64,000 nt of DNA from Anaerolineae bacterium (lineage in GTDB: Bacteria > Chloroflexota > Anaerolineae > JBHIEC01): NCBI GenBank assembly GCA_046760425.1, contig JBHIEC010000001.1, positions 325-64,324 of the forward strand, written 5' to 3'. The notes beneath the pieces are model-generated. The model was not told the origin of the DNA, searched no databases, and worked only from the letters and a program-made list of their open reading frames with translations. Shown in pieces: positions 471-30,313 of this stretch (within the stretch, counting starts at the first letter, position 1; each line of letters begins with the position of its first letter). The translations under genes and the position numbers were made by a program.

Positions 471-1814
471 TCAGCGGTTAGTAACGTAAGGAATGGTCTG
501 AGGCCCCTCAGGCAGGACGCAGATGGTTGCTTCGGGGCCGTACTGGTCCATCAGTTGGGCCAGAGTCTCCTCGATGCTGTGGCAAGGGATGAGCAGGGCA
601 TCCCTGATCTCCTGATCGGAGAGATAGGACGTCTTGAGGTAGACGTCGGCCTTGAGCTGGATCTGGGCCTGGACCTGGGCCTCCCACTGGTCCTGCATCA
701 GGAAGCCGGGCGAGTGGATGATCTCCAGGAGCTCCCGGGGGCTGTCGGCCATGTGGAGGATGTTTTTGTATTGCCCGTGGTCGGGGATACCATCCCAGCA
801 CTCGGCGGCGGCGATGATGCTCCCGCCCTCCCTGACGATCTGGGCGGCGGCCGACATGCCTTTCACCGTCTGATAGAGGTTGAGGTCCAGGGGGTACCCG
901 GAGTTGGTGGTGATCACGATGTCGAAGGGGGCGGGCACGGGGGCCATGGCCGTGCTCCTCACGAACTCCACCCCCGCCCGATGGGCCTGCCAGACGTCGC
1001 CAGCGAAGACGCCTGTGATCTCCCTGTGTTTGTTGAGGGTCACGTTAAGCAGGAAGGTCGGCTCCGTCCTGGCCGCCACCTCGCGGATCTCCTCCCAGAT
1101 AGGATTGCCCTCCGTCACGCCCCAGGTAGCCCTGGGATGTCCGATCATCCTGGCATCGTGGTTGCCCAGGATGGCTCCTTCGTCGGCCAGGCCCGGGAGC
1201 ACCGCCTTGGGCCCGCCACTGAAGCCGGCGAAGAAGTGGGGCTCGATGAAGCCAGTCAGGATCTTAACTGAAGCCTCCATATACTCCCGGTTCAGGCTCA
1301 CCCGATGGCCGAAGCTGGTCTGACCCTTGAACGTGCTCACCCGTCCCGAGCCCTTCTCGAACCCGTGCGGCGCGACAGACGGGTGAGCACGTTCAACCAC
1401 AGGCACCAACCGGTCCTGGTCCCAGGCGTCGTGCTGCACCACCCGATAGCCCTCCAGGATGTCCGGCCCCAGCATCCCTGCCAGCTCCTCCTGGGTGTTG
1501 GGACGGTGAGTGCCCAGGGCGTTGATGAGCACGATGTTCTCCCGGGGGACGTGGTCCAGTTGGGCCAGGAGAACGGGCAGCACCCGGTGGTTGGGCATGG
1601 GGCGGGTGAGGTCGCTGAAGACCACGGCCACCGTGTCCTGGGGCCTGACCAGGTCGCGCAGGGGTGGCGTGCCCAGGGGGGCGCTCAGAGCCGCCTCGAT
1701 GGCCGCCGCTTCGTCGGGCAGACCCGCCGCGAACTTCGGCTCCAGCACGGTGACGTTCTTATCGGGCAGCTCAACCCATAACCCTTCTTTGCCATAAGCC
1801 AGCTTAACCCTCAT
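471..1814 (-). CDS. larA: Nickel-dependent lactate racemase LarA family protein (DUF2088)
   Basis: 447 aa ORF with LarA-family length and composition. Recognised by overall similarity only. Confidence 0.65.
   Translation of the reverse strand: MRVKLAYGKEGLWVELPDKNVTVLEPKFAAGLPDEAAAIEAALSAPLGTPPLRDLVRPQDTVAVVFSDLTRPMPNHRVLPVLLAQLDHVPRENIVLINALGTHRPNTQEELAGMLGPDILEGYRVVQHDAWDQDRLVPVVERAHPSVAPHGFEKGSGRVSTFKGQTSFGHRVSLNREYMEASVKILTGFIEPHFFAGFSGGPKAVLPGLADEGAILGNHDARMIGHPRATWGVTEGNPIWEEIREVAARTEPTFLLNVTLNKHREITGVFAGDVWQAHRAGVEFVRSTAMAPVPAPFDIVITTNSGYPLDLNLYQTVKGMSAAAQIVREGGSIIAAAECWDGIPDHGQYKNILHMADSPRELLEIIHSPGFLMQDQWEAQVQAQIQLKADVYLKTSYLSDQEIRDALLIPCHSIEETLAQLMDQYGPEATICVLPEGPQTIPYVTNR
1327..1395. 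repeat. Perfect 19-bp inverted repeat with a 31-bp spacer, lying in frame inside larA
   Basis: TTGAACGTGCTCACCCGTC ... GACGGGTGAGCACGTTCAA. Encodes roughly ERAHPSVAPHGFEKGSGRVST inside the LarA ORF. Confidence 0.7.
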
Positions 1815-13959: not shown

Positions 13960-14670
13960 CTACCCCTCCAGCGCGATCCACAGCCTCTTGTTGATCCGCC
14001 CCTTGCTCTTGTAGTCCACGATCTTGATGGGGCCCACCTCGCTGGTGTTGGCCACGTGGGTGCCGCCGTCGGCCTGGAGGTCCAGCCCCACGATCTCCAC
14101 GGTGCGCACCTCTTTGATGGACGGGGGCAGGAGATTGATCTTGGTGCGGATGAGATCGGGAATCTGAAAAGCCTCCTCCCGGGGCAGGATGGCGATCTTG
14201 ACGGGGCGGGCGGCGGCCACCTCGGCGTTGATCTTCTCCTCGATCTCGTCCACCAACTCCCGCCCCATCCGCTCGAACTCGAAGTCCATGCGAGCTCGGA
14301 GAGGTTCCATGTTGCCCCCGGTGACCTGGGCGCCGTAGTCCCGCCAGATGACGCCGCACAGGATGTGCAACGCCGTGTGGGTACGCATCAGGGCGTAGCG
14401 GCGCTCCCAGTCGAGGACTCCGCCCACCCGGGTCCCGACCGAAGGCGGCTCCCGATCTAGGATGTGAAGCACGTCCGCCCCTTTCTTGCGAACCTTCGTC
14501 ACCTGAAACCTCCGGTCATTGGCCACGAGATGGCCCAGGTCGTGGGGCTGCCCCCCGCCGCCAGGGTAGAAGGCCGTACGGTCCAGAACAACGGCGTTGC
14601 CCTCCACGGCCATGACTATGGCCTCAAACTGGCGCAGGTAGCTGTCGGTCAGGTACAGTAATTCGGTCAT
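13960..14670 (-). CDS. Alanyl-tRNA editing protein AlaX-M-like (Ser/Gly-tRNA(Ala) deacylase)
   Basis: HTALHILCGV zinc motif with a second HxxxH motif. ATG start at MTELLYL is preceded by GGAGCAAGG. Confidence 0.7.
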   Translation of the reverse strand: MTELLYLTDSYLRQFEAIVMAVEGNAVVLDRTAFYPGGGGQPHDLGHLVANDRRFQVTKVRKKGADVLHILDREPPSVGTRVGGVLDWERRYALMRTHTALHILCGVIWRDYGAQVTGGNMEPLRARMDFEFERMGRELVDEIEEKINAEVAAARPVKIAILPREEAFQIPDLIRTKINLLPPSIKEVRTVEIVGLDLQADGGTHVANTSEVGPIKIVDYKSKGRINKRLWIALEG

Positions 14671-15140
14671 CGGACCTTGCTCCACATGTAGTCTAGGTAA
14701 TCCTCAAAGCCCATGGCCCGCCAGAAGGCCTGGGAGGCAGGGTTACGATGGGCAACGTTCAGTTGGATGACGGACAGGCCCTGATCCTTAAACCACTCCC
14801 GTAACGCTTCATAGAGACGCCGTCCGATACCCTGTCGACGCCACTCCGGCGCGACGCAGATGTCCGACACGTGGCCGTAGGCCCGCAGGCGGAAGATGGG
14901 CGGATTGTCCGCCACCCGGCCGGCGATGTAGCCCACGATGTGCCCTTCCACCTCAGCCACCAGGACACAACAGGCTTCGCTCCTCAGCCAGTCAGGGATC
15001 ACCTGGCGCATGTAGTCCACCCCTCGGGGGCCGACCTCCAGGCGAGGGTCCAGAGCGGCGTGGAAACGCATCATCTCTTCCCAGAGAGGGAGTATGTCAT
15101 TGACGTCTTTCAGCCTGGCGCGGCGAACGATGATCTCCAA
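14667..15140 (-). CDS. GNAT family N-acetyltransferase
   Basis: Acetyl-CoA-binding motif RRQGIGRRL. A probable TTG start at 15140 is preceded by AAGAGGGGA. The ORF-track N-terminal extension to 15287 is likely spurious. Confidence 0.6.
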   Translation of the reverse strand: MEIIVRRARLKDVNDILPLWEEMMRFHAALDPRLEVGPRGVDYMRQVIPDWLRSEACCVLVAEVEGHIVGYIAGRVADNPPIFRLRAYGHVSDICVAPEWRRQGIGRRLYEALREWFKDQGLSVIQLNVAHRNPASQAFWRAMGFEDYLDYMWSKVR

Positions 15141-15160
15141 GAATTCCCCTCTTAGCGGAA

Positions 15161-15194
15161 AAGCCCCCGTCCTTAGGGACGGGGGCTTTTCGCC
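15161..15194. terminator. Bidirectional rho-independent terminator
   Basis: AAAAGCCCCCGTCC ttag GGACGGGGGCTTTT. Perfect GC-rich stem flanked by A/T runs on both strands. Confidence 0.7.
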
Positions 15195-15777
15195 ACCCCC
15201 GCGGTACCACCCTATTTGGCATACCGCCCACTCCGTGGGGTACGTGTTCATACCCCCGTCCGTGTAACGGTGGACGAAACCGGCCAAGTCTACTTGCTTC
15301 GCACATTCGTAATCCGTAAACTCGTCACGAATCTACGAATTACGATCTACGAATGTACGAGCTTTCGGTTGGCGGCTCCGGAAGGATTTTCAGCGAGATC
15401 ATCGCGCCCGGCTCGCAGCCATATGTCGGGCTCTCTGTAGCGACTACCCTCGCCTACTCGTTTCCATCATCGCCTTTGGCTCGAATGTGACACTATTATG
15501 ACACAAAACGGCGGATTTGTCAAGGGCAAAAGCAAAGCCAACAGGCCCTCGTGCCTGCTGGCTCCCTTTTTTTCTGAGGCACGCCCCGCTGGGCCGTGTG
15601 CCGGGATGGGTTTTGAACCTGCAAGCGCAGGTGGGTGCCTACCGCCGGTTTTGCCCCCTAGGGGGCAGCCCCTTTAGAGATTGGCCCCTAAATTCAGGTG
15701 TTGGCTCAAAACTCTGTCGCGCATCACGTGCACAGCAGGGCGCCTCGCCTATATCATACCACAAAATGCCAAAAAAA

Positions 15778-18270: not shown

Positions 18271-18515
18271 GTCACACAACCACGGCAGTTTCTCGGCGGC
18301 GCAAGGGGCAAGCAGCGATCCTTCTCGGCGTGGCAGTTCTGTTCTGCCTCCTGCTGGTGCTCACGGCCTGTGAAGGTGGCCCCACCCCTACGCCGACCCA
18401 ACCCCCTTACCCTCCCCCGGCTACCCCCACACCGACCACTGGGCCCTATCCCCCTCCCCTCCCCACGGAGACGCCCGAGCAGTCCTACCCCGGGCCGACA
18501 CCCACGGCATCGTGA
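18267..18515 (+). CDS. Small proline/threonine-rich lipoprotein
   Basis: Signal peptide with LVLTAC lipobox. AAGGAGG ribosome-binding site. ATGA start/stop overlap with the upstream gene. Confidence 0.55.
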   Translation: MSHTTTAVSRRRKGQAAILLGVAVLFCLLLVLTACEGGPTPTPTQPPYPPPATPTPTTGPYPPPLPTETPEQSYPGPTPTAS

Positions 18516-18906
18516 AGGGGCCGGCCCACATGAGGGTCTGCGTCAACGGGGTGCCCATGCGTTCACGGAATTTGGACCCAATTTTGACCGGATTTGGACC
18601 TTGGTGTGTTATAATGGCCAATGAAATCGGATAAGCCAACGGTGCCCTCCGATTCATTGGGTCCCTCTGGGATCGGTGAACGATAAGGTGTGGGGGGCAA
18701 CTCCCACGCCCGCCAGTGTGCAAAGGAGGCAGCCCAGCTTTGGGTTTGCTTCCTTTTTGGTAGGGCGAGGATGAGGTTATCATCGTCCCACGAGGGACGA
18801 AACTGCGCTTGCTGTAGGGAGGAGGTGATGTGCAGGGCCAAAGCTGTCCATGGTGCATAGAGAGGTTCGGGTGCAAGATCCCTATTTTACTGGAGGAGGT
18901 GCTTGA

Positions 18907-20652
18907 ATGAGCAAGATCCTGCGCGTCAATATGACGGATTTGACAGCCAAGTACGAGGACGTGCCGGAGAAGTACAAGAACATGGGCGGGCGCTGGCTGA
19001 CCTCCAGCATCGTCTGCGACGAGGTGCCACCCTTGGCCCATCCCCTGGGGCCTAACAACAAGGTGGTGCTGGCCCCCGGCATCGTCACCGGCACGGCGGC
19101 CCCCACCAGCGCCCGTGTTTCGGTGGGTGGCAAGTCCCCCCTCACCGGCACCATCAAGGAGACCAACGCTGGCAGCGGCTGGCCCCAGAGCGTGGCCCGC
19201 CTGGGCATCAAGGCCATTGTGGTGGAGGGGCAGCCCCAGGAGAAGGGCAAGTTCTGGCTGCTGAAGGTTGATAAGGATGGGGCGGAGCTTCTTCCCGCCG
19301 ATGAGTGGGTAGGCAAGGGGCTCTACGAGGTCTTCCCCCAGCTCTTCGACAAGTTTGGCAAGAAGGCGAACATCATGGGCATCGGCGTGGCTGGGGAGAT
19401 GCAGATGGCTATGGCTGGGGTGTGCTTCAATGACGAGAAGGGACGCTCAGCCCGCTATGCTGGCCGTGGCGGGATGGGGGCGGTGCTGGGGAGCAAGGGG
19501 CTGAAGTTCATCGTCGTTGACAGCACTGGCGCCCCGGCCGCTATCCCCATGGCTGACAAGCAGCTCTTCGAGCAGGGCCGCAAGAAGCTGACCGAGGCTC
19601 TGCGCACCCACGACATCACCAAACCCAAGGGAGCCCTCAACACCTATGGCACGGCGGTGCTCGTCAACATCATGAACGAGGCTGGGGGCTTCCCCACCCG
19701 TAACTTCTCCAGCGGGCGCTTCGAGGGAGCAGCCAAGATCTCCGGCGAGGCTATCTTCGAGGGGAACAAGGAGCGCCTGGGGAAGGAACTCTACAACCAC
19801 GCCTGCAGCCCCGGCTGCATCATCCAGTGCTCCAATGTCTGGCACAAGCCCGACGGCAGTGAGCACGTCTCCTGCCAGGAGTACGAGTCGGTCTGGGCCC
19901 TGGGTGCCAACTGCGGCATTGACGACCTGGACGTCACCGGCGAGCTGATCTGGCTGTGCAACGACTACGGCGTGGATACCATCGAGGCCGGCGGCACCAT
20001 CGCCGTGGCCATGGAGGCGGGGCTGGCCGAGTTTGGCGACGGGGACAAGGCCATCGAGCTTATGCACGAGATCGGCAAGGGCACCCCTCTGGGCCACGTG
20101 CTGGGCAATGGGGCGGCCGTCACCGGCAAGGTCTTCGGGGTCGTCCGCGTGCCTCACGTCAAGGGGCAGAACATGCCGGCCTACGAGCCGCGGGCGGTTA
20201 AGGGCATCGGCGTGACCTACGCCACCTCCACCATGGGTGCCGACCACACCTCTGGCTACACCATCGCTCCCGAGATCCTCAGCGTGGGTGGCAAGGCCGA
20301 TCCCTTCGCCGTGGAGAAGGGGGAGCTGTCCCGCAACTTCCAGGCAGCCACGGCCTTCATTGATTCCACGGGCCACTGTCTCTTCATCGCCTTCGCCATT
20401 CTGGACATTGCCGAGGGCTTCGAGGGGATGATCGAGGAGTGCAACGGTGTCCTGGGCACCGACTGGACTGGTGATGACGTGACCAACATTGGTCTGGAGA
20501 TTCTGAAGAAGGAGCGGCAGTTCAACGAGGCGGCTGGCTTCACCAAGGCCGATGATCGGGTGCCGGAGTTCATGACCTATGAGAAGCTGCCGCCCCACAA
20601 CACTGTCTGGGACGTGCCGGAGGAGGTGCTGGACAGCGTCTACGCTTTCTAG
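18907..20652 (+). CDS. Aldehyde:ferredoxin oxidoreductase family tungsten enzyme, paralog 1
   Basis: 581 aa. N-terminal MSKILRVNMTD...GGRWLTSSIV is typical of the AOR family. Confidence 0.85.
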   Translation: MSKILRVNMTDLTAKYEDVPEKYKNMGGRWLTSSIVCDEVPPLAHPLGPNNKVVLAPGIVTGTAAPTSARVSVGGKSPLTGTIKETNAGSGWPQSVARLGIKAIVVEGQPQEKGKFWLLKVDKDGAELLPADEWVGKGLYEVFPQLFDKFGKKANIMGIGVAGEMQMAMAGVCFNDEKGRSARYAGRGGMGAVLGSKGLKFIVVDSTGAPAAIPMADKQLFEQGRKKLTEALRTHDITKPKGALNTYGTAVLVNIMNEAGGFPTRNFSSGRFEGAAKISGEAIFEGNKERLGKELYNHACSPGCIIQCSNVWHKPDGSEHVSCQEYESVWALGANCGIDDLDVTGELIWLCNDYGVDTIEAGGTIAVAMEAGLAEFGDGDKAIELMHEIGKGTPLGHVLGNGAAVTGKVFGVVRVPHVKGQNMPAYEPRAVKGIGVTYATSTMGADHTSGYTIAPEILSVGGKADPFAVEKGELSRNFQAATAFIDSTGHCLFIAFAILDIAEGFEGMIEECNGVLGTDWTGDDVTNIGLEILKKERQFNEAAGFTKADDRVPEFMTYEKLPPHNTVWDVPEEVLDSVYAF

Positions 20653-20743
20653 GGCAGCGGTGTGACAAAGAGGGGCTCGGTCATGAGATAGCCGGGCCCT
20701 CTTTGTTTGGTAGTCTCCTTGTTGGGTGTTGATGGCCACAAAG

Positions 20744-20806
20744 GGCGGCGGATAAATCACGCCGCCTGGGTAGAACACGCCCAGGCACCGTCATTCATGC
20801 GGTGCC
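20744..20806. repeat. Copy B (reverse orientation) of the three-hairpin intergenic repeat family
   Basis: Reverse complement reads GGCACCGCATGAATGACGGTGCC TGGGcgtgttctaCCCAGG CGGCGTGATTTATCCGCCGCC. Confidence 0.6.
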
Positions 20807-21244
20807 ATCATTATCAACACCTCTTCACTGGGTCACCAACACGATAGGGGGAGACTACCCTTTGTTTGCGTCACCGCAAATGCGGCAACCCTCAGGCGGC
20901 CTCTTAACCTCGATGTTCTCTTGGAGCGGCTCCCCGAAGACACATGCGCACGCCCTTGCGGAAGATGTTCAGGCTGGCGAGCGCGGGTCCCACCCCGTCG
21001 TGCATTCCCGCGCGATGCGCCGCCGCTCCTCCTCCTGGGCTGCCGTCACCTGGGCCAGTTGTTGGCGCAGGATGGCCAACCGCTCTTCGTGCAGGCGGGC
21101 GTTCTCCAGGGCCGGGGTGGCGCTGTGGGCTGCGGTTTACTTCATGGGTAACCTGAGGACCTGCCAGGCTTGACCTCGCCCTCGTCAAGCGATATAATTC
21201 CAGCACGCCAGGCGGGCGCTCATTCTCAAGGCGAGGAGGGAGGC

Positions 21245-21502
21245 ATGATCGAAGTTCGGCTCTACGGGGTGCTCCGTCACTACGCGGAGAACAAGGAGGT
21301 GACCGGCGAGTCCATCGTCTATGTGCCCCTGGAAGGACAGGACACCGTCCAGGACGTGCTCAAGCGCATCGGCATCGAGCCCCAGGAGGTGAGCAACATC
21401 TTCATCAATGGTACCTACGCGTCCACGGCACTGAAGTCAAGGGTGCAGGATGGTGACCGGCTGGGTGTCTTCCCCAGGAACATGGGGTTGCTTTATATAT
21501 AG
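21245..21502 (+). CDS. MoaD/ThiS-like beta-grasp protein lacking a C-terminal Gly-Gly
   Basis: MIEVRLYG...DGDRLGVFPRNMGLLYI. Same fold signature as MoaD but the terminal GG is replaced by GLLYI. Confidence 0.6.
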   Translation: MIEVRLYGVLRHYAENKEVTGESIVYVPLEGQDTVQDVLKRIGIEPQEVSNIFINGTYASTALKSRVQDGDRLGVFPRNMGLLYI

Positions 21503-21560
21503 CGGAACTCCAGGGATGCTTGCCTTTTGGGGGAAAAGGGGGTCACGCCCGGGGGAGGGG

Positions 21561-21836
21561 ATGGTCGAAGTTCATCTTTATGGCAAACTGCGGCGCTTCG
21601 CTGCGGATCAGGATCCCACCGGCGACTCCGTCGTCTACGTGCCGGCGGAGGAGAGGGATACCATCCAGAATGTGTTGGAGCGCATCGGTGTGCCATTGGA
21701 AGAGGTGGGTGGTAATATCTTCCTCAATGGGGAATACTCAACGCTGGCGAGGGAGGTGAAGGCCGGAGATCGTCTGGGGGTATTCCCGGACGATATGCAA
21801 CTGCTCTATAAGTGGTATTTTCGCAAGATAGGGTAG
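21561..21836 (+). CDS. MoaD/ThiS-like beta-grasp protein lacking a C-terminal Gly-Gly (paralog of 21245..21502)
   Basis: MVEVHLYGKLRRF...AGDRLGVFPDDMQLLYKWYFRKIG. Confidence 0.6.
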   Translation: MVEVHLYGKLRRFAADQDPTGDSVVYVPAEERDTIQNVLERIGVPLEEVGGNIFLNGEYSTLAREVKAGDRLGVFPDDMQLLYKWYFRKIG

Positions 21837-21888
21837 GTGTATCCCCTCACCAGCGGGGCCGTCTGTTTTCCGGCACGAAGCCCGCGAC

Positions 21889-22170
21889 TCATCCTTGACC
21901 GCCGGCCACCGGAGGAAAGATAGAGAGCTCATCGCTCTCCTGCAGGACGGTGTCGAGGCCCTCCCTGAATTTGATGCTGCGCCCCTGGACGAAGACGTTC
22001 ACCGTCCGCCGCAGGTGGCCCTCGTCGTCCAGGATGTGTCCCTCCAGGCCGGGGTGGGCGGCGATGAGCCTGTGAAGCACATCCCGCACGGTGTCCCCCG
22101 CTTCACCCTCGACCTCCACCTCCTTCATCCCCACGATCTGCCTCAGGGTAGCGTAAACCCGCACCTTCAT
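21889..22170 (-). CDS. MoaD family protein ending GG-QG
   Basis: MKVRVYATLRQIVG...SDELSIFPPVAGGQG. Classic MoaD signature (IFPPVxGG) with two extra residues after Gly-Gly. Confidence 0.65.
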   Translation of the reverse strand: MKVRVYATLRQIVGMKEVEVEGEAGDTVRDVLHRLIAAHPGLEGHILDDEGHLRRTVNVFVQGRSIKFREGLDTVLQESDELSIFPPVAGGQG

Positions 22171-22353
22171 GGCTGGTTGAGACCCCCTTCCAACGGAAGT
22201 GTGGCTTCGGCCTGAGCTCAGCCAAACGGCTTTGAGCCAGGCCAATTATACCATCACCCAGCCCAAAAGGCAACAGGGAGTGGCACCAAACTTCATCTTT
22301 CCCCCCATGTGCTATAATCCCACCGCTATGAGCAAAGGGAATGAAGGACACCA

Positions 22354-23535
22354 ATGCGCCTCACCCCTAAGACGGAACTAGACCAGCGTATTGCCAGGCT
22401 CCAGGCCCTGCTGGCTCAGGAGGGTCTCGACGGGGCCCTGCTCCTTCAGCGGGCCGACCTCTTCTACTTCAGCGGCACCATCCAGCAATCCCACCTCTTC
22501 GTGCCCAGCGACGGTACCCCCCTCCTGATGACCCGCAAGAGCTTCAGCCGGGCGCGCCGGGAATCGGCCCTGGAGGCTGTGGTGCCCCTGAGGAGCCTGC
22601 GGGACCTGCCTGGCCTCCTGGCCGGGCATGGCCACGCCGCCCGCCTGGGCATGGAGCTGGACGTGCTGCCGGCCAACCTCTATTTCCGTTACCAGCAACT
22701 TTTCCCCCAGACGGAGTTGGTGGATGTCTCGCCCCTGGTGCGGCAGGTGCGGATGATCAAGTCCCCTTATGAGATCGGCGTCATGCGTGAGGCGGCCCGG
22801 ATCGCGGACACGCTCACCCGCCACGCAGCGCATGTCATCCGGGAGGGGATGACTGAAGTGGAGCTGGCGGGGGAACTGGAGGCCGTGGCGCGGCGGGAGG
22901 GCCATCAAGGGGAGATCTGGATGCGGAATTGGAACCAGGCCGTGTTCTACGGCCACGTGCTGGCGGGCAGGAGCGGGGCGGTGGTCAGCTACCTCGACGC
23001 GCCGCTGGCGGGGATGGGCCTCAGCCCGGCCATGCCCCACGGCCCCAGCCGGCGGCGCATCCAGCGGGGCGAGCCTATCATCGTGGACTACGTAGCTGCC
23101 TGCGACGGCTACCTGGTGGATCAGATGCGGGTCTTTGCCCTGGGGTCTCTATCCGCCAGGTGGGTGGCGGCCTACGAGGCCATGCTGGCCGTCCAGGAGG
23201 CGGTCAGGGAGGCAGCGCGCCCTGGCGCCCTGTGCGCCGACCTCTACGACCTGGCCGTGGCCGAAGCCGCCCAAGGGGGCTACACCGAATCCTTCATGGG
23301 CCACGGCGAGGGGCAGGTGGCCTTCGTGGGCCATGGGGTGGGGATCGAAATTGACGAGCTGCCGGTGCTGGCCAGAGGGGTGGAGATGCCACTGCAGGTG
23401 GGGATGGTTTTCGCCCTGGAGCCCAAGGTGGCCTTCCCGGGCGAGGGGGCCATCGGGATTGAGAACACGTGGCTGGTGACGGAGGCGGGGTTAGAACCGC
23501 TGACGTTCTCCGATGAGAGAATCACCATCCTGTGA
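22354..23535 (+). CDS. M24-family metallopeptidase (Xaa-Pro aminopeptidase/creatinase-like)
   Basis: 393 aa. N-terminal creatinase-like domain followed by a pita-bread catalytic domain (HGVGIEIDE, ALEPKV). Confidence 0.8.
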   Translation: MRLTPKTELDQRIARLQALLAQEGLDGALLLQRADLFYFSGTIQQSHLFVPSDGTPLLMTRKSFSRARRESALEAVVPLRSLRDLPGLLAGHGHAARLGMELDVLPANLYFRYQQLFPQTELVDVSPLVRQVRMIKSPYEIGVMREAARIADTLTRHAAHVIREGMTEVELAGELEAVARREGHQGEIWMRNWNQAVFYGHVLAGRSGAVVSYLDAPLAGMGLSPAMPHGPSRRRIQRGEPIIVDYVAACDGYLVDQMRVFALGSLSARWVAAYEAMLAVQEAVREAARPGALCADLYDLAVAEAAQGGYTESFMGHGEGQVAFVGHGVGIEIDELPVLARGVEMPLQVGMVFALEPKVAFPGEGAIGIENTWLVTEAGLEPLTFSDERITIL

Positions 23536-23870
23536 GGTCTTGCTCTATCTGTATCAGGCCGTTGTCCCCCTGCATAGGCTGGCAGGAAGACCACTTCGTC
23601 CCCCTCCCTGAGCCCCGTCTCCAGGCCCTGCAAAGAGGCCAGTGGATGCCCGTTAACTAGGACGACGATATGGCGCTTGACCTGTCCCGTCTCGGCATCA
23701 AAGAGGGCCTCACGGAAGCCTTGGCCGTATTTGTCCGCCAGCCGATTGAGCAGGGAGCCAACCCTCTCCCTTTCTTCGATCTCCTCCTCCAGGGCAAGGC
23801 TGCCCGACCCTCTTCGCAAGCCAGTCCGCTGGGCCAGGGGAGAATAGATTCTTAGCGATACCTTGGCCAT
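23280..23870 (-). CDS. MoaD-like protein with a long extension after Gly-Gly; the MoaD core is 23565..23870
   Basis: MAKVSLRIYS...GDEVVFLPAYAGG, then QRPDTD... with no stop until 23280. The extension is antisense to the last ~255 bp of the M24 peptidase gene. Confidence 0.45.
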   Translation of the reverse strand: MAKVSLRIYSPLAQRTGLRRGSGSLALEEEIEERERVGSLLNRLADKYGQGFREALFDAETGQVKRHIVVLVNGHPLASLQGLETGLREGDEVVFLPAYAGGQRPDTDRARPHRMVILSSENVSGSNPASVTSHVFSIPMAPSPGKATLGSRAKTIPTCSGISTPLASTGSSSISIPTPWPTKATCPSPWPMKDSV

Positions 23871-23932
23871 AGTAGCTCTCGCCCTCTGGCTTTGCCCGGG
23901 GCGCCACAGCCTGTAGCGCCCCGGGCAACTTT

Positions 23933-25792
23933 CTACGGCCACAGTTCCTGGGCTACGTAGCTCAATCCCAGCTTCTCCAGGGTCTCCGGCAAGGGTTTGC
24001 TCGTCTCCTCGTCCCAGCCCATGTGCTTGTAGTAGTCGCGCACCATCTGGTCATACGAGGGGGCGATGCTCACCCCCTTGGCCGGCCCATCCACCGGCGC
24101 CTGCGCCAGGCGGGGCGAGATGATGTCCTGCTCCGGGGAGAGGCCGTGCCGGACGTTGAAGGCCCGCTGCAGGTTGACGATCCTCCTCCCGACCTCCAGC
24201 GCTTCCTCAGGGGTAAAATCCCAGCCGGTAGCCGCGCTCAGGGTGTCAGTGATGATCTGCAACCTGGCTCCTAGAAGGAACATGCACACCCCCAGCGTAT
24301 CGTTGAACTGGGATTTTGGCGCCCCCTTGCTCAGGCCCTTGGGAACACCCTCCACCGAGAAGGGGGGCAGAGGCTCAGGATAGCCGATGTCCGGGTCGGG
24401 CATCAGGTCTGGCACCAGTCCCTCGAAGGAACCCATATCGGAGACGGATTGGGCGAACAAGATACCCCACATCCCCCGGGGATCATGGGTATGGGGGCCG
24501 ATGCCCTTCTTGGTGTAGACGGCGAAGTTAGGGGCCTCTCCGCCGATCTTCTCGGCGGCCCGCATCACTCCCTCAGCCAGCACGTCGCCGAACCCTTCCC
24601 GGTGGGCGATCTTGTGCAAGAGAGCCTTCACCGCCTCAGGGTCTCCCCAGACAAGCTCCAGCCCATCAAGGTCCTCCTTGGTGATCAGGCCCTTCTCGTA
24701 GCACTCCATGGCCAGGCTGACCACCCAACCGCCCTCCTTGACGTCCATCCCCAGGCGGTCGTTGACGTTGGTGAGCATCACAGCTGCGCCAGGGTCGGTG
24801 ATGCCTACCAGGGAGCTCCAGGCCGCCATGTCCTCGTATTCCGGCTCCTCGCCTTCGAAGCCCTTGTAAGGGCCCTCGGTGACCGTCACTATGTGGCAAT
24901 GGGCCATGGGACAAGCGTAGCAGGGTCGGGGCCTCAGCTTAAAGGTCTGGCGAATGTAGTCGCCGGTGAACTTAGGGTGCTCGGGGAAGAGATTGGTGGT
25001 CAGGTTCCTGACCGGAAGCCAGCCCATCTCCGCTGCGGCGGAGAAATAGCCGAGCGTGCCAAGGGAGTAGACGACGCTGCCCAGGGGCGACTGCTTAGCA
25101 CTCTCGAACCACTCCTTGGCCAGCTCCTTCACCTTCTCTTCATCCTTGATCGGCACCTCCATTTTCCCATGCACGGCGATGGCCTTGAGCTTTTTGGAGC
25201 CCATCACCGCCCCCGGCCCATTGGTGGAAGCGATGTGTCCCTTGTCGCCGCAGATGCCGGCGAACTTGACCAGGTTCTCGCCCGAGGGCCCGATGCAGGC
25301 CACGCTCAGCTTGGGTTCCCCCAGCTCCTCTTTGAGCAGATCCTCAGTCTCGTAGGTATCCTTGCCCACCAGGTGGCTGGCGTCACATAGCTCCGCTGTG
25401 CCGTCGTGGACCCAAAGGTAGACCCACTTGGGCGAAGCGCCCTGGACAACGATGGCATCGTAACCGGCAAAGCGGAGCCGGGCGCCGAAGAAGCCGTTGG
25501 CATGGGTGGCCGTGAGGAGATTGGTCAGGGGTCCCCGCGTCACCACAGCGTAGGTACCGGAGCCCGGTGCCCGGGTGCCACCCAGAGGGCCGCTGGCGAA
25601 GATCAGGCGGTTCTCGGGATCAAAAGGCTCAACACCGGGGGGCACCTCGTCGTAGAGGATCTTGACCCCCAACCCCGTGCCGCCCACAAACTTCCTCAGG
25701 TACTCCGGGTCGAACTGCTCCTCGCTGATTTCCCCCTTGGTCAGGTCCACCCTGAGGATTCTGCCCGTATACTCATCTGCTCTAGCGACCAT
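23933..25792 (-). CDS. Aldehyde:ferredoxin oxidoreductase family tungsten enzyme, paralog 2
   Basis: 619 aa, MVARADEYTGRILRVDLTKGEI.... Confidence 0.85.
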   Translation of the reverse strand: MVARADEYTGRILRVDLTKGEISEEQFDPEYLRKFVGGTGLGVKILYDEVPPGVEPFDPENRLIFASGPLGGTRAPGSGTYAVVTRGPLTNLLTATHANGFFGARLRFAGYDAIVVQGASPKWVYLWVHDGTAELCDASHLVGKDTYETEDLLKEELGEPKLSVACIGPSGENLVKFAGICGDKGHIASTNGPGAVMGSKKLKAIAVHGKMEVPIKDEEKVKELAKEWFESAKQSPLGSVVYSLGTLGYFSAAAEMGWLPVRNLTTNLFPEHPKFTGDYIRQTFKLRPRPCYACPMAHCHIVTVTEGPYKGFEGEEPEYEDMAAWSSLVGITDPGAAVMLTNVNDRLGMDVKEGGWVVSLAMECYEKGLITKEDLDGLELVWGDPEAVKALLHKIAHREGFGDVLAEGVMRAAEKIGGEAPNFAVYTKKGIGPHTHDPRGMWGILFAQSVSDMGSFEGLVPDLMPDPDIGYPEPLPPFSVEGVPKGLSKGAPKSQFNDTLGVCMFLLGARLQIITDTLSAATGWDFTPEEALEVGRRIVNLQRAFNVRHGLSPEQDIISPRLAQAPVDGPAKGVSIAPSYDQMVRDYYKHMGWDEETSKPLPETLEKLGLSYVAQELWP

Positions 25793-25955
25793 TGTTGGTT
25801 ACCTCCTCAGTTCTAAGCTTACTTCCCAAGGTTTCCGTTGTGCTTTTTCAGGCTTGTCCTTCCATCACCTCCCTTCGCGGCCACGGCCCAAGTCTCGTTG
25901 AGCTGCCGGGCTCAAGCACAATAGGAGGGCAGTAGAGCGAGGTCGTCCCCCTCGC

Positions 25956-26369
25956 TCAAGGCAGTTTCCAGCCCCTTTGATGAAGGGGACGCCCGTTGAC
26001 CAGCACCACTACGCCGGGCCAGAACAACCGCCTCTGCGGCTCGAAGATCACCTCCCCGAAACGGCTGCCTCTTCCTGTCTGGGTGCCCCCTGCTGTGGCC
26101 GGGAGAAAGGCGACCTCGTCTCCATCCTGGAGGGGGGCCTTCAGGCCACCGACCAGGCCGGCCTCACGCCCGGCAATGAGCACCCGCACGAAGGGTTTTA
26201 CCTCCCCCTCCTCGGTCAGCAGGTGATCTTTGAAGTCTGGAGCATGGCTGTCAGCCAGCCGTTGCAGCAGGTCGGCCAGGTGGGCCCCCTCGGCCAGTTG
26301 GACCGTTTCCTCTTTAATCCCGGCCAAGCCCCTCAGGTGTCCGAAGAAGCGAGTCTTGACCGTGATCAT
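25956..26369 (-). CDS. MoaD-like protein with a 42-aa extension after Gly-Gly
   Basis: MITVKTRFFGHL...GDEVAFLPATAGG, then TQTGRGSRFGEVIFEPQRRLFWPGVVVLVNGRPLHQRGWKLP. The extension tail resembles the start of another ThiS/MoaD strand (VLVNGRPL). Confidence 0.55.
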   Translation of the reverse strand: MITVKTRFFGHLRGLAGIKEETVQLAEGAHLADLLQRLADSHAPDFKDHLLTEEGEVKPFVRVLIAGREAGLVGGLKAPLQDGDEVAFLPATAGGTQTGRGSRFGEVIFEPQRRLFWPGVVVLVNGRPLHQRGWKLP

Positions 26370-26384
26370 GTCTCCTGACCTTTC

Positions 26385-28256
26385 CTATCCCAGGGCGAAG
26401 CCCAGACCCAGCTCCTCCAGCTTCTCCCGCGTCGGGATGCCCTTCTCGTCCCAGCCCCGGGCCTGGTAGTATTGGGGCAGGAGCTCATCCTCCTCGTACA
26501 CCTGACCCGCCGAAGCGCCATCGGGCAGGGGCTCCTCCACGAAGCGCCGGGGCATCCGATCGGACTCGCCAGTGATCCCCTCCCGCACGTTGAACATACG
26601 CTCCAGGTTGTATATCCGTTCGCCCACCTTCCACATGTAGTTCAGGTCGGCGAACTCCTCGATCCCCGTGGCGGCGGCCAGCAGTTCGGCCTGGATCTCG
26701 GCCATGTTCGGGGCCATGAGGGCTGGGAAGGAGCACAAGAACCCGGTTTCCATCATGGCGGTGAAGTCCTGGTTGGCTTTGGCCAGTTCACCCTTCCCCT
26801 GAGTGGAGAAACGATCCACCCCTTCGGGCATGGGCACGGGGATGGGCATGCCGAGAACCTCTTGGGGCGCGTAGCCGTAGTTGTGGCTGCCACCGATGGT
26901 AGCGGTGCCCAGGTTCAGGCCGTGGGCCTTGGCGCCGCGAGGGTCATAGGCGGGGAGCTCCAGCCCTTTGACATGCATGGCATAGCGCTCTGCTCCTTTG
27001 CCCATCCGCTCCGCCGCCCGCTTCACCCCTTCCGCCAAGAGATCGCCGATCCCCTGGCGGAAAGCGATCAGCCGGATCAGCTCCAGGGCGGCCCCGTAGT
27101 TGCCCCAGGTGAGCTCTAACCCACCGGTATCCTCCATGGTCAGGAGTCCCTTCTCATAGAGCTCGAAGGCGAACCCGATGGCGGCGCCGGTGGAGATGGA
27201 GTCCACCCCCAGTTCGTCGCACAGGCGATCGTACTCCATGGTGTAGTCCCGATCGGCGTAATCAATGTTGCCCGTGGCCGCCCAGATGGTCTCGTACTCG
27301 GGGCCCTTGGTGCGCCAGACACCGCCGAATTTGCCCGGGCCGGAGCGGATGAAGCTGCCGCAGTGGATGGTGCAGGCATAGCACGCCGTCTTGCCCAGGC
27401 GGACCTTGGAGTACTCCTCCCCCTCGATCCTCTCCCAGTTGGTGAGCACGCCCCTCTGGAAGTTTCGGGTGGGGAACATACCCAGGAGGTTAGTGAACTC
27501 GGCGATCTGGGTGCCGGTCCAGGAGAAAGAGGGCACCATAGGCGAGGCCTCATAGGCTTCTACCTGGCGCTTGACCGCCGCCTTAAACCGTTCCGGATGG
27601 GCGATGGTCACTTTGCCTTTCCCCCTGATGGCGATGGCCTTCAGGTTCTTCGCACCCATCACCGCCCCGGCACCGCCCCGGCCGGCCACACCACCGCGTT
27701 CGGTGCCGATCTTGTCGGCCACGACGGCCGCGTAGCGCACCAGGTTTTCGCCGGCGGGGCCGATAGCGATGCCGCGAACCTTCTCGTCCCGGAGGCTCTC
27801 TTTGATGAGCAGATGGGTCAGTTCGGTGGTGTGGCCCCACAGCTTCTCGGCGTCCCCGAACTCTACACCATCTTCGGTGATGGAGATGTACACCGGCTTC
27901 TCAGACTTGCCCTCTACGATGATCATGTCATAGCCAGCGAACCTCATCTCCGAGCCGAAGAAGCCACCGCCCACGGTGCGGGTGTAGCTGTCGGTCAGGG
28001 GGGATTTAGTGATGATCATCCAGCGGGAGTAGGACTGCGCCCCCGTGGCGCTGAGAGGGCCGATGGTGATAATGAGTTTGTTGTCCGGGCCCAGGGGGTC
28101 CGTTCCCGGCTTGACCTCTTGGAACAGATACCGAGCAGCCAACCCCCGAGCCCCGACGAAGTCATGAACCCAGTCTTCCCGCAGTTCCTCCCTTTGGAAC
28201 GTCTGATCCGTTAGGTTCACCCGCAGGAGCCTGTTGGCGTAACCACCTGTTAACAT
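26385..28256 (-). CDS. Aldehyde:ferredoxin oxidoreductase family tungsten enzyme, paralog 3
   Basis: Start at MLTGGYANRLLRVNLTD, preceded by GAGGAGGAG. The ORF-track start at 28286 is ten codons upstream. Confidence 0.8.
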   Translation of the reverse strand: MLTGGYANRLLRVNLTDQTFQREELREDWVHDFVGARGLAARYLFQEVKPGTDPLGPDNKLIITIGPLSATGAQSYSRWMIITKSPLTDSYTRTVGGGFFGSEMRFAGYDMIIVEGKSEKPVYISITEDGVEFGDAEKLWGHTTELTHLLIKESLRDEKVRGIAIGPAGENLVRYAAVVADKIGTERGGVAGRGGAGAVMGAKNLKAIAIRGKGKVTIAHPERFKAAVKRQVEAYEASPMVPSFSWTGTQIAEFTNLLGMFPTRNFQRGVLTNWERIEGEEYSKVRLGKTACYACTIHCGSFIRSGPGKFGGVWRTKGPEYETIWAATGNIDYADRDYTMEYDRLCDELGVDSISTGAAIGFAFELYEKGLLTMEDTGGLELTWGNYGAALELIRLIAFRQGIGDLLAEGVKRAAERMGKGAERYAMHVKGLELPAYDPRGAKAHGLNLGTATIGGSHNYGYAPQEVLGMPIPVPMPEGVDRFSTQGKGELAKANQDFTAMMETGFLCSFPALMAPNMAEIQAELLAAATGIEEFADLNYMWKVGERIYNLERMFNVREGITGESDRMPRRFVEEPLPDGASAGQVYEEDELLPQYYQARGWDEKGIPTREKLEELGLGFALG

Positions 28257-28452
28257 TACACTCTCCTCCTCGTGTATCCATGGCACGCCCTTCGTGCCTT
28301 TTGGTGATTCAAGGACTCTGTTGTTTTTTCTACATCACCTCCTCAAACCCTGTGAGATGAGAAAGCTTTAAGGGGAGCTGGGCACCCCCCGCCACAGTGA
28401 CGATACTATAGGAGACACTTTTATATAGTCTAGCATGCTTTTATCATCCTGT

Positions 28453-28491
28453 CAAAACGATTTTATACGATTTTACACGATTTAGGCGATT
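28453..28491. promoter_or_regulatory. Tandem ACGATTTTA-like repeats in the AOR3/regulator divergent intergenic region (candidate operator)
   Basis: CAAAACGATTTTATACGATTTTACACGATTTAGGCGATT. Confidence 0.4.
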
Positions 28492-28552
28492 GTCTCTTGA
28501 CAAAGTCTTCTTCTTGGGATAAAATTAGGTATCTCAACCAGGAGGAGAGGCG

Positions 28553-30115
28553 ATGGCCGCTAAGAAAAGATTGTTGAGCATGAAGGAAGCTTGTCACTAT
28601 CTCGGGGTGAGCCGAACGACGCTGCTCAATATAGAAGGAGAGGGACTTATCAGTCCCGCCCGAACGCCCGGTGGGCACCGACGTTATTCCATCGAAGAGC
28701 TGGAGCGCGTTCTTAGTCTCAGTCGAGACATCTTCGGGCGAAGACCCAGTCCTCGTGGGCCCGGGGTCAAGTTCAGCCTGCCCCATTTCATCGAGGAGTT
28801 GGCTACCAGCCCTGCCTCGACGGAGCAGATCATGGCCGAAGCCATCAAGCAACTCGTCTGGCTCTTCCAGGGGGATATGGGGGCCATCTTTACTCTGGAC
28901 GACGAAGGGAGCCTACGCCTCCAGGCTTCTTACAGGTTGCCTGATGAACTCATCGAGACGCTGTCTCGTGATTCCAACGAGGGGGTCTCTGCCAGAGTTC
29001 TGGCGACAAAGCAACCTCTGGTCTACAGCGAGGCCGAAAGCGAGATCCCCTTGCCGCCGGGTCAGGCCCAAGGGGTCTGTGTGCCCCTCATCTATCGCGA
29101 TACCGCCATGGGAGTCCTCCATATCATCTCCATGAACCGTTATCAGTTCTTCCCCAGCGAGATCAATGTCCTGTCGGCCATCGCCATCTACCTGGCCAGC
29201 CTCATCGTCAGTTCCCAGTACCTCAGGCAATATCAGCAGCGGCTCGATGAGTTGGCTTTCCTCAATCGCATGTGCGCCGCCATGCAGACCAAGGTTGATC
29301 TCGACCAGGTGCTTGGTACGTTCCTGGAGGAAACCATTGCTATGATGAAAGCAGATACGGGGACCGTTTTGCTTCGTGACCCGGCCAAAGGCGATCTCTA
29401 CGTCAGGGTGACGCGGGGCTTTCCAGAGGAGATGTACCACTTTCGACTGAAGGTGGGGGAGGGGATAGCAGGTTGGGTGGTGGAGCACGGAGAAGTCTGC
29501 ATTAGTCCCGACCTGGCCCATGAGCCACGCCTCTCCCATCGTGGCCGGGACCTGATCAAGGGGATCACCTCCACCATCTGCGTGCCCCTGAAGACCGAGG
29601 AGACTACCATCGGGGCTTTTCATATCAGCACCCGCTCGCCACGCACCTTCAGCCAGGAAGAGGTGCACTTTCTTTCCATCGTTGCCAGCCAGGCAGCGGC
29701 CATTATTCAACGTGCTCAGCTTTACGAGGAGATGGCGGAGCTGGCAAGGAAGGAGCGCCTCCTGCGCAGCTACTTGGAGGATGTGATCGAAAACGCCCCC
29801 ATAGGCATGAAGTTGTTGGACAAGAACCTGACCGTGTTGGCGTGGAATGCGGCTATGGAGAGAATGATCGGTATCAAGCGAGAGGAGATCATAGGCAAGA
29901 ACGAACTAGAAATCATCCCTACTTTGCGGCAAGAGGGGGCGGGGGAGATATTCGCCAGCGTCCTCAGCAGAGGAGAGCCTCATGAGATCAAGGGGTTCCG
30001 TCACATGACGCCAACTGGAGAGGAACGCATTTACAACGTCAAATTCCTGCCCCTCAAGAATAATGAAGAGATCAGCGGGGCAGTGCTTTTCGTTCAGGAC
30101 GTGACCGAGGTCTAG
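28553..30115 (+). CDS. MerR-type HTH / GAF / GAF / PAS transcriptional regulator
   Basis: N-terminal MKEACHYLGVSRTTLLNIEGEGLISP...RRYS (MerR-family helix-turn-helix), two GAF-like blocks and a C-terminal PAS-like block. Confidence 0.7.
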   Translation: MAAKKRLLSMKEACHYLGVSRTTLLNIEGEGLISPARTPGGHRRYSIEELERVLSLSRDIFGRRPSPRGPGVKFSLPHFIEELATSPASTEQIMAEAIKQLVWLFQGDMGAIFTLDDEGSLRLQASYRLPDELIETLSRDSNEGVSARVLATKQPLVYSEAESEIPLPPGQAQGVCVPLIYRDTAMGVLHIISMNRYQFFPSEINVLSAIAIYLASLIVSSQYLRQYQQRLDELAFLNRMCAAMQTKVDLDQVLGTFLEETIAMMKADTGTVLLRDPAKGDLYVRVTRGFPEEMYHFRLKVGEGIAGWVVEHGEVCISPDLAHEPRLSHRGRDLIKGITSTICVPLKTEETTIGAFHISTRSPRTFSQEEVHFLSIVASQAAAIIQRAQLYEEMAELARKERLLRSYLEDVIENAPIGMKLLDKNLTVLAWNAAMERMIGIKREEIIGKNELEIIPTLRQEGAGEIFASVLSRGEPHEIKGFRHMTPTGEERIYNVKFLPLKNNEEISGAVLFVQDVTEV

Positions 30116-30159
30116 AATCAGGATCAAGTAGCCTCCCTGCTTCAAAGAAGAGCGCACAA

Positions 30160-30186
30160 AAGGGCGAGACATATTTTCTCGCCCTT
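30160..30186. terminator. Rho-independent terminator downstream of secA; also follows the regulator gene
   Basis: AAGGGCGAGA catattt TCTCGCCCTT, with TTTTGTG following on the minus strand. Confidence 0.6.
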
Positions 30187-30313
30187 ATACTGCCCTTTCT
30201 TACAGGGCAACCCTATCACAGAGATCTCACCATCCCTCTCAATAACCTTATGAAGACGAATCGCTTCCATAAATCTTTCACCCCCATTTTTGTTAAGGCT
30301 GAAATGTCACCTA

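Follow-up and report, generated by a model that had tools for sequence, protein, structure and literature searches.

Proteins of the MoaD, ThiS and SAMP1 type are encoded with Gly-Gly (GG) as their C-terminus. In the window considered here, a stretch of 64,000 nucleotides from contig JBHIEC010000001.1 of a metagenome-assembled genome (MAG) of an Anaerolineae bacterium, three genes of the aldehyde ferredoxin oxidoreductase (AOR) family are accompanied by five genes for small proteins of the ThiS/MoaD (beta-grasp) fold, three of which run past the GG, and this raises the question of what these extensions are. The AOR genes are numbered AOR1 to AOR3 as in an earlier reading made from the DNA letters (the sequence-only reading), and the small genes were named S1 to S5. 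Two, 94 and 42 codons follow the GG of S3, S4 and S5, respectively. Pfam and NCBIfam profiles and the open reading frames (ORFs) confirmed the content described in the sequence-only reading, i.e. three AOR paralogs and five MoaD/ThiS-fold proteins, three of them with post-GG residues. S3, S4 and S5 matched ThiS and SAMP1/MoaD models, and S1 and S2 matched Ub-Mut7C best and ThiS second. The comparisons presented here point to post-GG tails that are probably accidental, near-neutral additions to AOR-linked carriers and no conserved device.

The S5 gene (25956-26369, minus strand, 137 residues) lies downstream of AOR3 (26385-28286, minus strand). It consists of a core of the SAMP1/MoaD carrier type (26085-26369, 95 residues, ending ATAGG) and of the 42-residue tail. 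The protein matched ThiS (E-value 3e-12) and, with 64 bits, exceeded the cut-off of the NCBIfam SAMP1 model. In the AlphaFold model residues 1-95 were confident (pLDDT >90), and residues 99-137 had a pLDDT <50. The modelled core found its best Foldseek match in SAMP1 (3PO0; TM 0.90, rmsd 1.6 A), and the beta-grasp fold, for which modelling had been suggested as a check, was in this way borne out at the level of the model. The only relative of the tail other than S5 itself was P0002, an intact beta-grasp protein of 109 residues ending LLPPYCA, the residues 48-85 of which are 79% identical to residues 6-42 of the tail over 38 aa. In the related locus L004, the P0002 gene is flanked by a radical SAM/SPASM gene on one side and, on the other, by an AOR gene 85% identical to AOR2, and this position is that of the S5 tail in the window. 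At the DNA level the window and L004 are about 85% identical over the S5 tail, the former stop codon and the spacer that extends to the start of AOR2. The alignment delimits a relic of a second beta-grasp gene of the P0002 type (25912-26084, minus strand), of which the 5' half is gone and which is frameshifted with respect to L004 by a deletion of 4 nt (TCTG). Its first 42 codons are the S5 tail, and its old frame, out of the S5 frame, still reads LETALSEGDDLALLPSYCA (...LLPSYCA) followed by a stop. By its likeness to P0002, its position by an AOR2-type gene and the DNA alignment, the S5 tail is an in-frame read-through into a fused pseudogene fragment. No close ortholog of the S5 core was found, and the tail is explained through the relic instead.

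S4 (23280-23870, minus strand, 196 residues) is encoded downstream of AOR2 (23933-25792, minus strand). Its core (23565-23870, 102 residues, ending AYAGG) is a beta-grasp protein of the MoaD family (ThiS, E-value 2.8e-9; TIGR01687, 50.5 bits, above cut-off). A profile of the S4 core and P0002, run against 1.84 billion representatives, retrieved 1644 relatives. The closest one, P0004, has 102 residues, is 72.5% identical to the core and stops right after AYAGG. The P0004 gene is located directly downstream of an 85%-identical AOR2 relative in L013, and of a cut AOR fragment in L014. Where P0004 reads GCA GGA GGA TAG, the S4 gene reads gca ggg gga CAA cgg. Past the GG, the S4 ORF (23280-23564, 94 read-through codons and a stop) crosses a spacer of 29 nt and then covers, in antisense, the final 85 codons of a convergent gene for an M24 (Xaa-Pro/creatinase-type) peptidase (22354-23535, plus strand; Creatinase_N and Peptidase_M24), which amounts to an overlap of 255 nt. 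The GC fraction at the three codon positions is 0.44/0.67/0.78 in the tail and resembles that of non-coding DNA, against 0.70/0.43/0.71 in the core. The tail matched no Pfam family, and full-length S4 with its tail gave no homolog in a word-indexed search of 5.8 billion clusters, in which S4 itself was not recovered either. As judged by comparison with the relatives, the S4 tail is an antisense read-through after loss of the stop codon. One hit of the S4-core profile search, P0005 (3741 residues with 14 matched stretches), was a low-complexity repeat match and was ignored. The M24 peptidase was also considered as the enzyme that would remove the tail and was rejected, a weak M24-like gene being present near only two of 80 AOR1 loci. 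M24 enzymes act on N-termini or on Xaa-Pro dipeptides. No terminator was found between S4 and the M24 gene.

S3 (21889-22170, minus strand, 93 residues) is a SAMP1/MoaD-type carrier in which the terminal AGG is followed by QG. It matched ThiS with an E-value of 9e-17 and the NCBIfam SAMP1 model with 107 bits (cut-off 60). All seven nearest homologs (P0153-P0159, 59-78% identical) end FPPVAGG without any tail, and two of them are encoded as convergent neighbours of AOR genes. The 3' end of the gene reads GGC GGT CAA GGA TGA in the window versus GGC GGC TGA in L018. This comparison indicates only that the tail is absent in the nearest relatives, and not how it originated.

The tails had been taken in the sequence-only reading to imply processing by a JAMM/MPN protease or a ubiquitin-like conjugation role. 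They are not a conserved feature, the nearest homologs of S3 and S4 ending at GG and the S5 tail being a fused relic. It had also been stated that homologs terminating at GG would reveal the extensions as frameshift or assembly artefacts. Such homologs do exist for S3 and S4, but the tails of S4 and S5 were recovered in three assemblies and are no artefacts. The region 23488-30216 of the window is 99.96% identical to three Logan assemblies from the separate runs SRR29324583, SRR29324585 and SRR29324586, with only 2-3 single-nucleotide polymorphisms (SNPs) over 6.7 kb, none at the tail sites. The identical S5 of 137 residues is encoded in all three of them, and the stop after the GG of S4 is absent there too, as far as the contigs reach. 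Since three independent assemblies agree, the S4 and S5 extensions are real mutations and no assembly error. When AOR2, S3 and the M24 peptidase were looked up by exact sequence, no contigs were returned, and the S3 tail is seen in one assembly only.

GG followed by a tail was frequent among the relatives. It was counted in 37 of the 81 members of the S3 family when S3 itself was left out (38 of 82 with S3; 46%), in 30 of 143 members of the S4 family (21%), and in three of 38 AOR1-linked ThiS-like proteins (8%), which served as control. The excess of tails in the S3 family over this control has a Fisher p of 2e-5. That AOR-linked SAMP1-like families frequently carry tails and keep the GG suggests widespread post-GG trimming in these bacteria. 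Several groups within the S3 family (P0160-P0171, P0178/P0212/P0225, P0182/P0201 and P0192/P0230) display like tails, namely GG-K[RG]SI, GG-RRSVFME..., helical-looking tails of 37-47 residues, and GG-APLTPSHIPSSSPTT. Another S3 relative, P0211, ends GG-CF, like QbsE. A different arrangement was observed in P0041 (210 residues), in which a MoaD-like domain ending GGG is joined by a Pro/Glu-rich linker to another, GG-less beta-grasp domain; units of the two types can therefore be paired within a single polypeptide as well. In two loci (L102 10327-12952 and L103 3770-6395), an AOR gene and a ThiS-like gene with a tail are followed by six tandem ORFs of 129-162 residues with overlaps of a few bases; these small ORFs gave no Pfam hit.

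The two remaining small proteins have no GG. S1 (21245-21502, plus strand, 85 residues) ends FPRNMGLLYI and S2 (21561-21836, plus strand, 91 residues) ends FPDDMQLLYKWYFRKIG. Pfam searches assigned S1 to Ub-Mut7C (1e-9) and to ThiS (1.7e-6), and S2 to Ub-Mut7C (8e-13), with 38.6 and 48.5 bits, respectively, against a cut-off of 23 for PF14451. Both proteins are 57% identical to each other and stand alone, no fusion to a Mut7-C (PIN-like) RNase domain being present. Their relatives were counted downstream of AOR1 orthologs in 80 metagenome loci, 58 of which were informative, i.e. extended at least 900 nt beyond the AOR1 ortholog. An S2-like gene directly follows the AOR1 ortholog in 42 of the 58 loci. 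Their products share HLYGKLRRFA close to the N-terminus and FPDDMQLLYKWYF towards the C-terminus, beyond which comes a variable tail. All 42 detected S2 orthologs (38 distinct sequences) end with M-x-LLY, most of them also have KWYF, and none has a GG. Because no detected ortholog ends in GG, the GG-less end is the normal state of the S1/S2 family and not a loss. A ThiS-like gene was detected in 38 of the informative loci, stopping exactly at GG in 35 of these 38, and 30 of the 58 loci contain both the S2-like and the ThiS-like gene, which frequently overlap. An LLYI-ending gene resembling S1 follows AOR1 in L034. The conserved Ub-Mut7C-like family that accompanies AOR1-type genes is represented in the window by a tandem duplication, S1 and S2. 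The AlphaFold model of S2 was poor (pLDDT 60, from an alignment of two sequences only).

The trio of AOR1, Ub-Mut7C-like and ThiS-like genes is spread over loci L023-L101 (e.g. L025 6001-8683), and its counterpart in the window is 18907-21836. There, the GG-ending ThiS partner that usually comes after S2-like genes is not present, and the convergent S3 stands in its place. The gap of 590 nt between AOR1 and S1 contains a frameshifted HisKA_3 histidine-kinase relic (20952-21106, minus strand), found by six-frame translation, the joined pieces of which match PF07730 (E-value 8e-8), and a promoter-like site. No beta-grasp gene lies downstream of the closest AOR1 ortholog, that of L022. The window locus has clearly been rearranged. 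In L022 the ORF that comes after the AOR1 ortholog has a transposase-like appearance. At two closer AOR1 loci (L025 8712-13159 and L029 8078-12518) the trio is followed by three genes which look aminotransferase-like, large FAD-linked oxidase-like and LarA-like; a LarA-like gene is also predicted in the window (471-1814, minus strand), 17 kb from AOR1. No paper describing the link between S1/S2 and AOR1, nor a description of the trio, was found in the literature searched. The subfamily-specific pairing is the less familiar part of the locus, and the trio could bear on cofactor delivery to tungsten enzymes.

Both AFOR_N and AFOR_C were identified in all three AORs (E-values of 1e-58 to 1e-127, far above the Pfam cut-offs), and all three align nearly end to end with the AOR of Pyrococcus furiosus (1AOR) and with other solved AORs. 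AOR1 (18907-20652, plus strand, 581 residues), the PDB matches of which were 9mqx and 1aor, represents a distinct subfamily, with orthologs in the 80 metagenome loci that are 66-89% identical and align end to end. The possibility of a C-terminal truncation of AOR1, the Pfam match being 20 positions short, was rejected, as the 80 orthologs align to residue 579-581. AOR2 (619 residues) shares 85% identity with its counterparts in L013 and L004. AOR3 has 633 residues when started from GTG and 623 in the Logan gene call. The label 'tungsten-type' is drawn by analogy from characterized relatives, and both the metal and the aldehyde substrate are predicted. One dedicated, extension-bearing protein per AOR paralog had been proposed. 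What stands of this proposal is that each AOR type would have its own kind of beta-grasp partner, which fits the synteny: AOR1-type genes occur with Ub-Mut7C-like and ThiS-like genes, AOR2-type genes with genes of the S4/P0002 type, and S3-type genes beside other AORs. The extension itself does not appear to be a design feature. A scan of genome contigs based on AOR2 yielded eight loci, only one of which had a MoaD-like gene nearby, and no ortholog test was drawn from it.

In agreement with the sequence-only reading, neither a JAMM protease nor an E1 enzyme was detected in the window. No JAMM motif was present in window ORFs of at least 80 residues, nor in the 103 related loci examined, and no ThiF homolog was found among the ORFs of the window, in which MoaE and other E1 genes were not seen either. 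ThiF is encoded beside AOR genes in only four of the 103 loci (L015, L016, L017 and L026). Two features that would mark a ubiquitin-like pro-protein, a carrier-linked JAMM/MPN gene (in the window and the 103 loci) and a post-GG extension conserved in orthologs, were not found. Trimming after the GG by an unlinked JAMM-type protease is possible. Where a ThiF-type E1 gene is linked to AOR, it stands directly beside it (L015 13473-17313, likewise L016 and L017; L026 4642-5406), a linkage absent from the window. In L015, polyferredoxins come after the AOR, which has 745 residues and a Tat-like leader. By eye, the minus strand at 38356-63384 of the window seems to encode multihaem cytochromes, a molybdopterin oxidoreductase with an FeS subunit, Rieske/cytochrome b, the large subunit of a NiFe hydrogenase and HypA/C/D/E/F. 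Since a molybdopterin oxidoreductase is encoded in the window, the general pterin-cofactor pathway is presumably encoded elsewhere in the genome.

Association of MoaD-like genes with AOR genes was described by the sequence-only reading as already noted, and the literature bears this out. MoaD/ThiS genes strictly adjacent to AOR genes and apart from the main cofactor operon were reported in clusters that frequently contain MoeB, MoaE or MoaA, and a role in the tungsten cofactor was proposed for them (Iyer, Burroughs and Aravind 2006; Makarova and Koonin 2010; PMC1779556, PMC2948915). The window displays the same MoaD/ThiS-AOR adjacency; in contrast to the published clusters it lacks MoeB, MoaE and MoaA and has three AORs, two GG-less partners and post-GG ORFs. 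With the adjacency, sometimes including MoeB, MoaE or a radical SAM gene, known since 2006, the window is a further, somewhat decayed bacterial example. In Thermococcus kodakarensis, the ubiquitin-like protein (Ubl) UblC (TK1065) is encoded between TK1066 (AOR) and TK1064 (radical SAM) and contributes to the activities of AOR and of formaldehyde ferredoxin oxidoreductase (FOR); the Ubls of this organism are mutually redundant, have GG as their terminus and are served by an E1 of the same genome (PMC11323500). Its locus likewise has a MoaD-family Ubl next to AOR, and the order radical SAM/SPASM, beta-grasp, AOR recurs in L004. The window differs from it in being bacterial, in having no radical SAM gene and in not encoding a free GG. 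S1 and S2 match above its cut-off the N-terminal ubiquitin-like domain of Mut7-C RNases (Ub-Mut7C, PF14451) and share its GG-less end, but they have no RNase domain and are tied to AOR1-type genes, and S2 further differs by a conserved C-terminal motif of its own, FPDDMQLLYKWYF.

QbsE ends GG-CF and is processed by QbsD, and CysO is paired with Mec. The pro-sequence is conserved in QbsE/QbsD, CysO-Mec and the ubiquitin precursor of Caldiarchaeum (CsUb) with Rpn11, whereas the tails of S3-S5 are not conserved. All three systems resemble S3-S5 in having extra post-GG residues that need removal (PMC6043591 for CsUb/Rpn11); the protease gene is in the operon there, and none is linked in the window. 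A closer counterpart of the carriers themselves is SAMP1 of Haloferax volcanii (3PO0), the NCBIfam cut-off of which was passed by S3 and S5 and on which the modelled S5 core superposes. SAMP1 is, however, encoded with a free GG, and unlike for SAMP1/HvJAMM1, no JAMM gene was found in the window. Cleavage after GG by a JAMM protease is the known route by which such an end is freed, as for HvJAMM1 with SAMP1 (PMC4443979).

Accidental origin of the tails is regarded as probable. The three AOR paralogs form a cluster in which each one is accompanied by the kind of beta-grasp partner usual for its subfamily, and S3, S4 and S5 would serve as sulfur carriers, possibly as modifiers, for the AOR pterin cofactor, as their homology and the published context suggest. 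As the comparison with relatives shows, S5 is extended by read-through into the 5'-deleted, frameshifted remnant of a neighbouring beta-grasp gene, and S4 by a CAA at the position of the ortholog's stop, which opens 94 codons antisense to the convergent peptidase gene; in S3, CAA-GGA precedes the stop. The tails would be near neutral, since none of the three gene bodies is damaged and relatives often carry residues after the GG. Purifying selection on body and GG with a near-neutral remainder is the pattern expected if something trims after the GG, and the likeliest cause would be a protease encoded elsewhere that trims the tails, or at least short ones. Failing trimming, S4 and S5 would be crippled copies, dispensable since other carriers are present. 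Several points weigh against this reading. Tolerance through trimming is a proposal, and no trimming protease, E1 or MoaE gene was seen in the window. The S3 tail comes from a single assembly, and the role as sulfur carrier would follow from homology. It is also unlikely that three GG-type genes with intact bodies all lost the free GG as random first lesions, a hint of tolerance, perhaps even of selection; the triple coincidence is in part a matter of ascertainment, the locus having been flagged for its tails. Finally, the short tails GG-KRSI, GG-KGSI and GG-QKSI recur across diverged sequences in one clade of the S3 family. Recurrent tails of this family may be genuine pro-sequences, and not every S3-family tail is accidental.

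Among the alternatives, the one with most weight, and still appreciably less probable, is that S4 and S5 are already dead, or are dying, as genes: their unremoved tails would block adenylation of the terminal glycine, and the AOR cofactor would be supplied via S3 or a canonical MoaD encoded elsewhere. Other decay at the locus (the beta-grasp relic, the histidine-kinase relic and the missing ThiS partner) is consistent with it, as are the non-coding-like composition of the S4 tail and its overlap of 255 nt with the convergent gene, the redundancy of Ubl sulfur carriers in T. kodakarensis (PMC11323500) and the molybdopterin oxidoreductase of the window, which implies general cofactor-synthesis genes elsewhere. 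Against this, the bodies of S4 and S5 are intact with strong family matches, random decay would hardly begin and end with a stop-codon lesion in each of them, and the S5 core up to the GG was spared by the deletion behind the fusion with the relic. The frequency of tails with a retained GG among the relatives likewise speaks against simple decay. That the tails are purposeful pro-sequences, with a dedicated carrier per AOR paralog gated by a JAMM/MPN protease or by ubiquitin-like conjugation, is improbable. Every tail-bearing relative does keep the GG, such relatives are frequent, short tails recur in the S3-family clade, and post-GG processing has precedents in HvJAMM1/SAMP1 (PMC4443979), CsRpn11/CsUb precursor (PMC6043591) and DRJAMM/MoaD-MoaE (PMC8832034). 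The nearest orthologs, however, share none of the three tails; that of S5 is a pseudogene fragment and that of S4 an antisense read-through, and the window lacks JAMM and E1 genes, the 103 loci having no JAMM motif and ThiF in only four cases. Sequencing or assembly errors of the MAG can hardly account for the extensions: the source is indeed a MAG and the S3 tail has no independent confirmation, but the S5 ORF is identical, and the S4 stop equally missing, in the assemblies of three separate runs, with only 2-3 unrelated SNPs in 6.7 kb.

Accidental addition to the carriers of the window hence remains the preferred reading. A wider conjecture, speculative and rather doubtful, would be that AOR-linked SAMP1-like carriers of Anaerolineae and relatives are routinely made as pro-proteins, with an unlinked protease exposing the GG, and that the GG-less Ub-Mut7C-like protein is a non-activatable adaptor or decoy paired with the downstream GG-ending ThiS-like protein. 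If true, this would explain near-neutral loss of stop codons and the 46% of the S3 family that carry a tail and keep the GG, and cofactor sulfuration or conjugation of individual AOR paralogs would be protease-gated. For annotation, the locus is a warning that post-GG extensions of MoaD/ThiS-like genes can arise by loss of the stop or by fusion to a dead neighbour, and an ortholog check is needed before a processing or conjugation system is inferred from them.

Few regulatory elements were recognized around these genes. A sigma-70-like promoter precedes S1-S2 (21170-21198, plus strand; TTGACC, 17 nt, TATAAT; 11/12) and another one S3 (22245-22273, minus strand; 10/12, extended TG); both are consensus matches only, and the small genes may be transcribed independently of the AOR genes. 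A block of 22 nt, GGAGGTGATGGAAGGACAAGCC, upstream of AOR2 (25851-25872, minus strand) is identical, by DNA alignment, in the otherwise diverged leader of the 85%-identical ortholog in L004 (about 1113-1134); it had no Rfam match and may be a candidate regulatory site. An Rfam search of 18400-28700 gave no match at gathering score or with E up to 1, two sub-threshold hits were taken as chance, and a riboswitch or leader in the intergenic regions was rejected. The HTH_17-GAF-PAS regulator gene divergent from AOR3 (28553-30115, plus strand; Pfam families of the identical Logan gene) is probably a member of the AOR cluster. Outside the cluster, a T-box leader (15172-15479, minus strand, 94.7 bits) and a 6S RNA (15579-15744, minus strand, 69.3 bits) were identified between a GNAT-like gene (14667-15287), which the T-box partly overlaps, and an aspartyl-tRNA synthetase gene.

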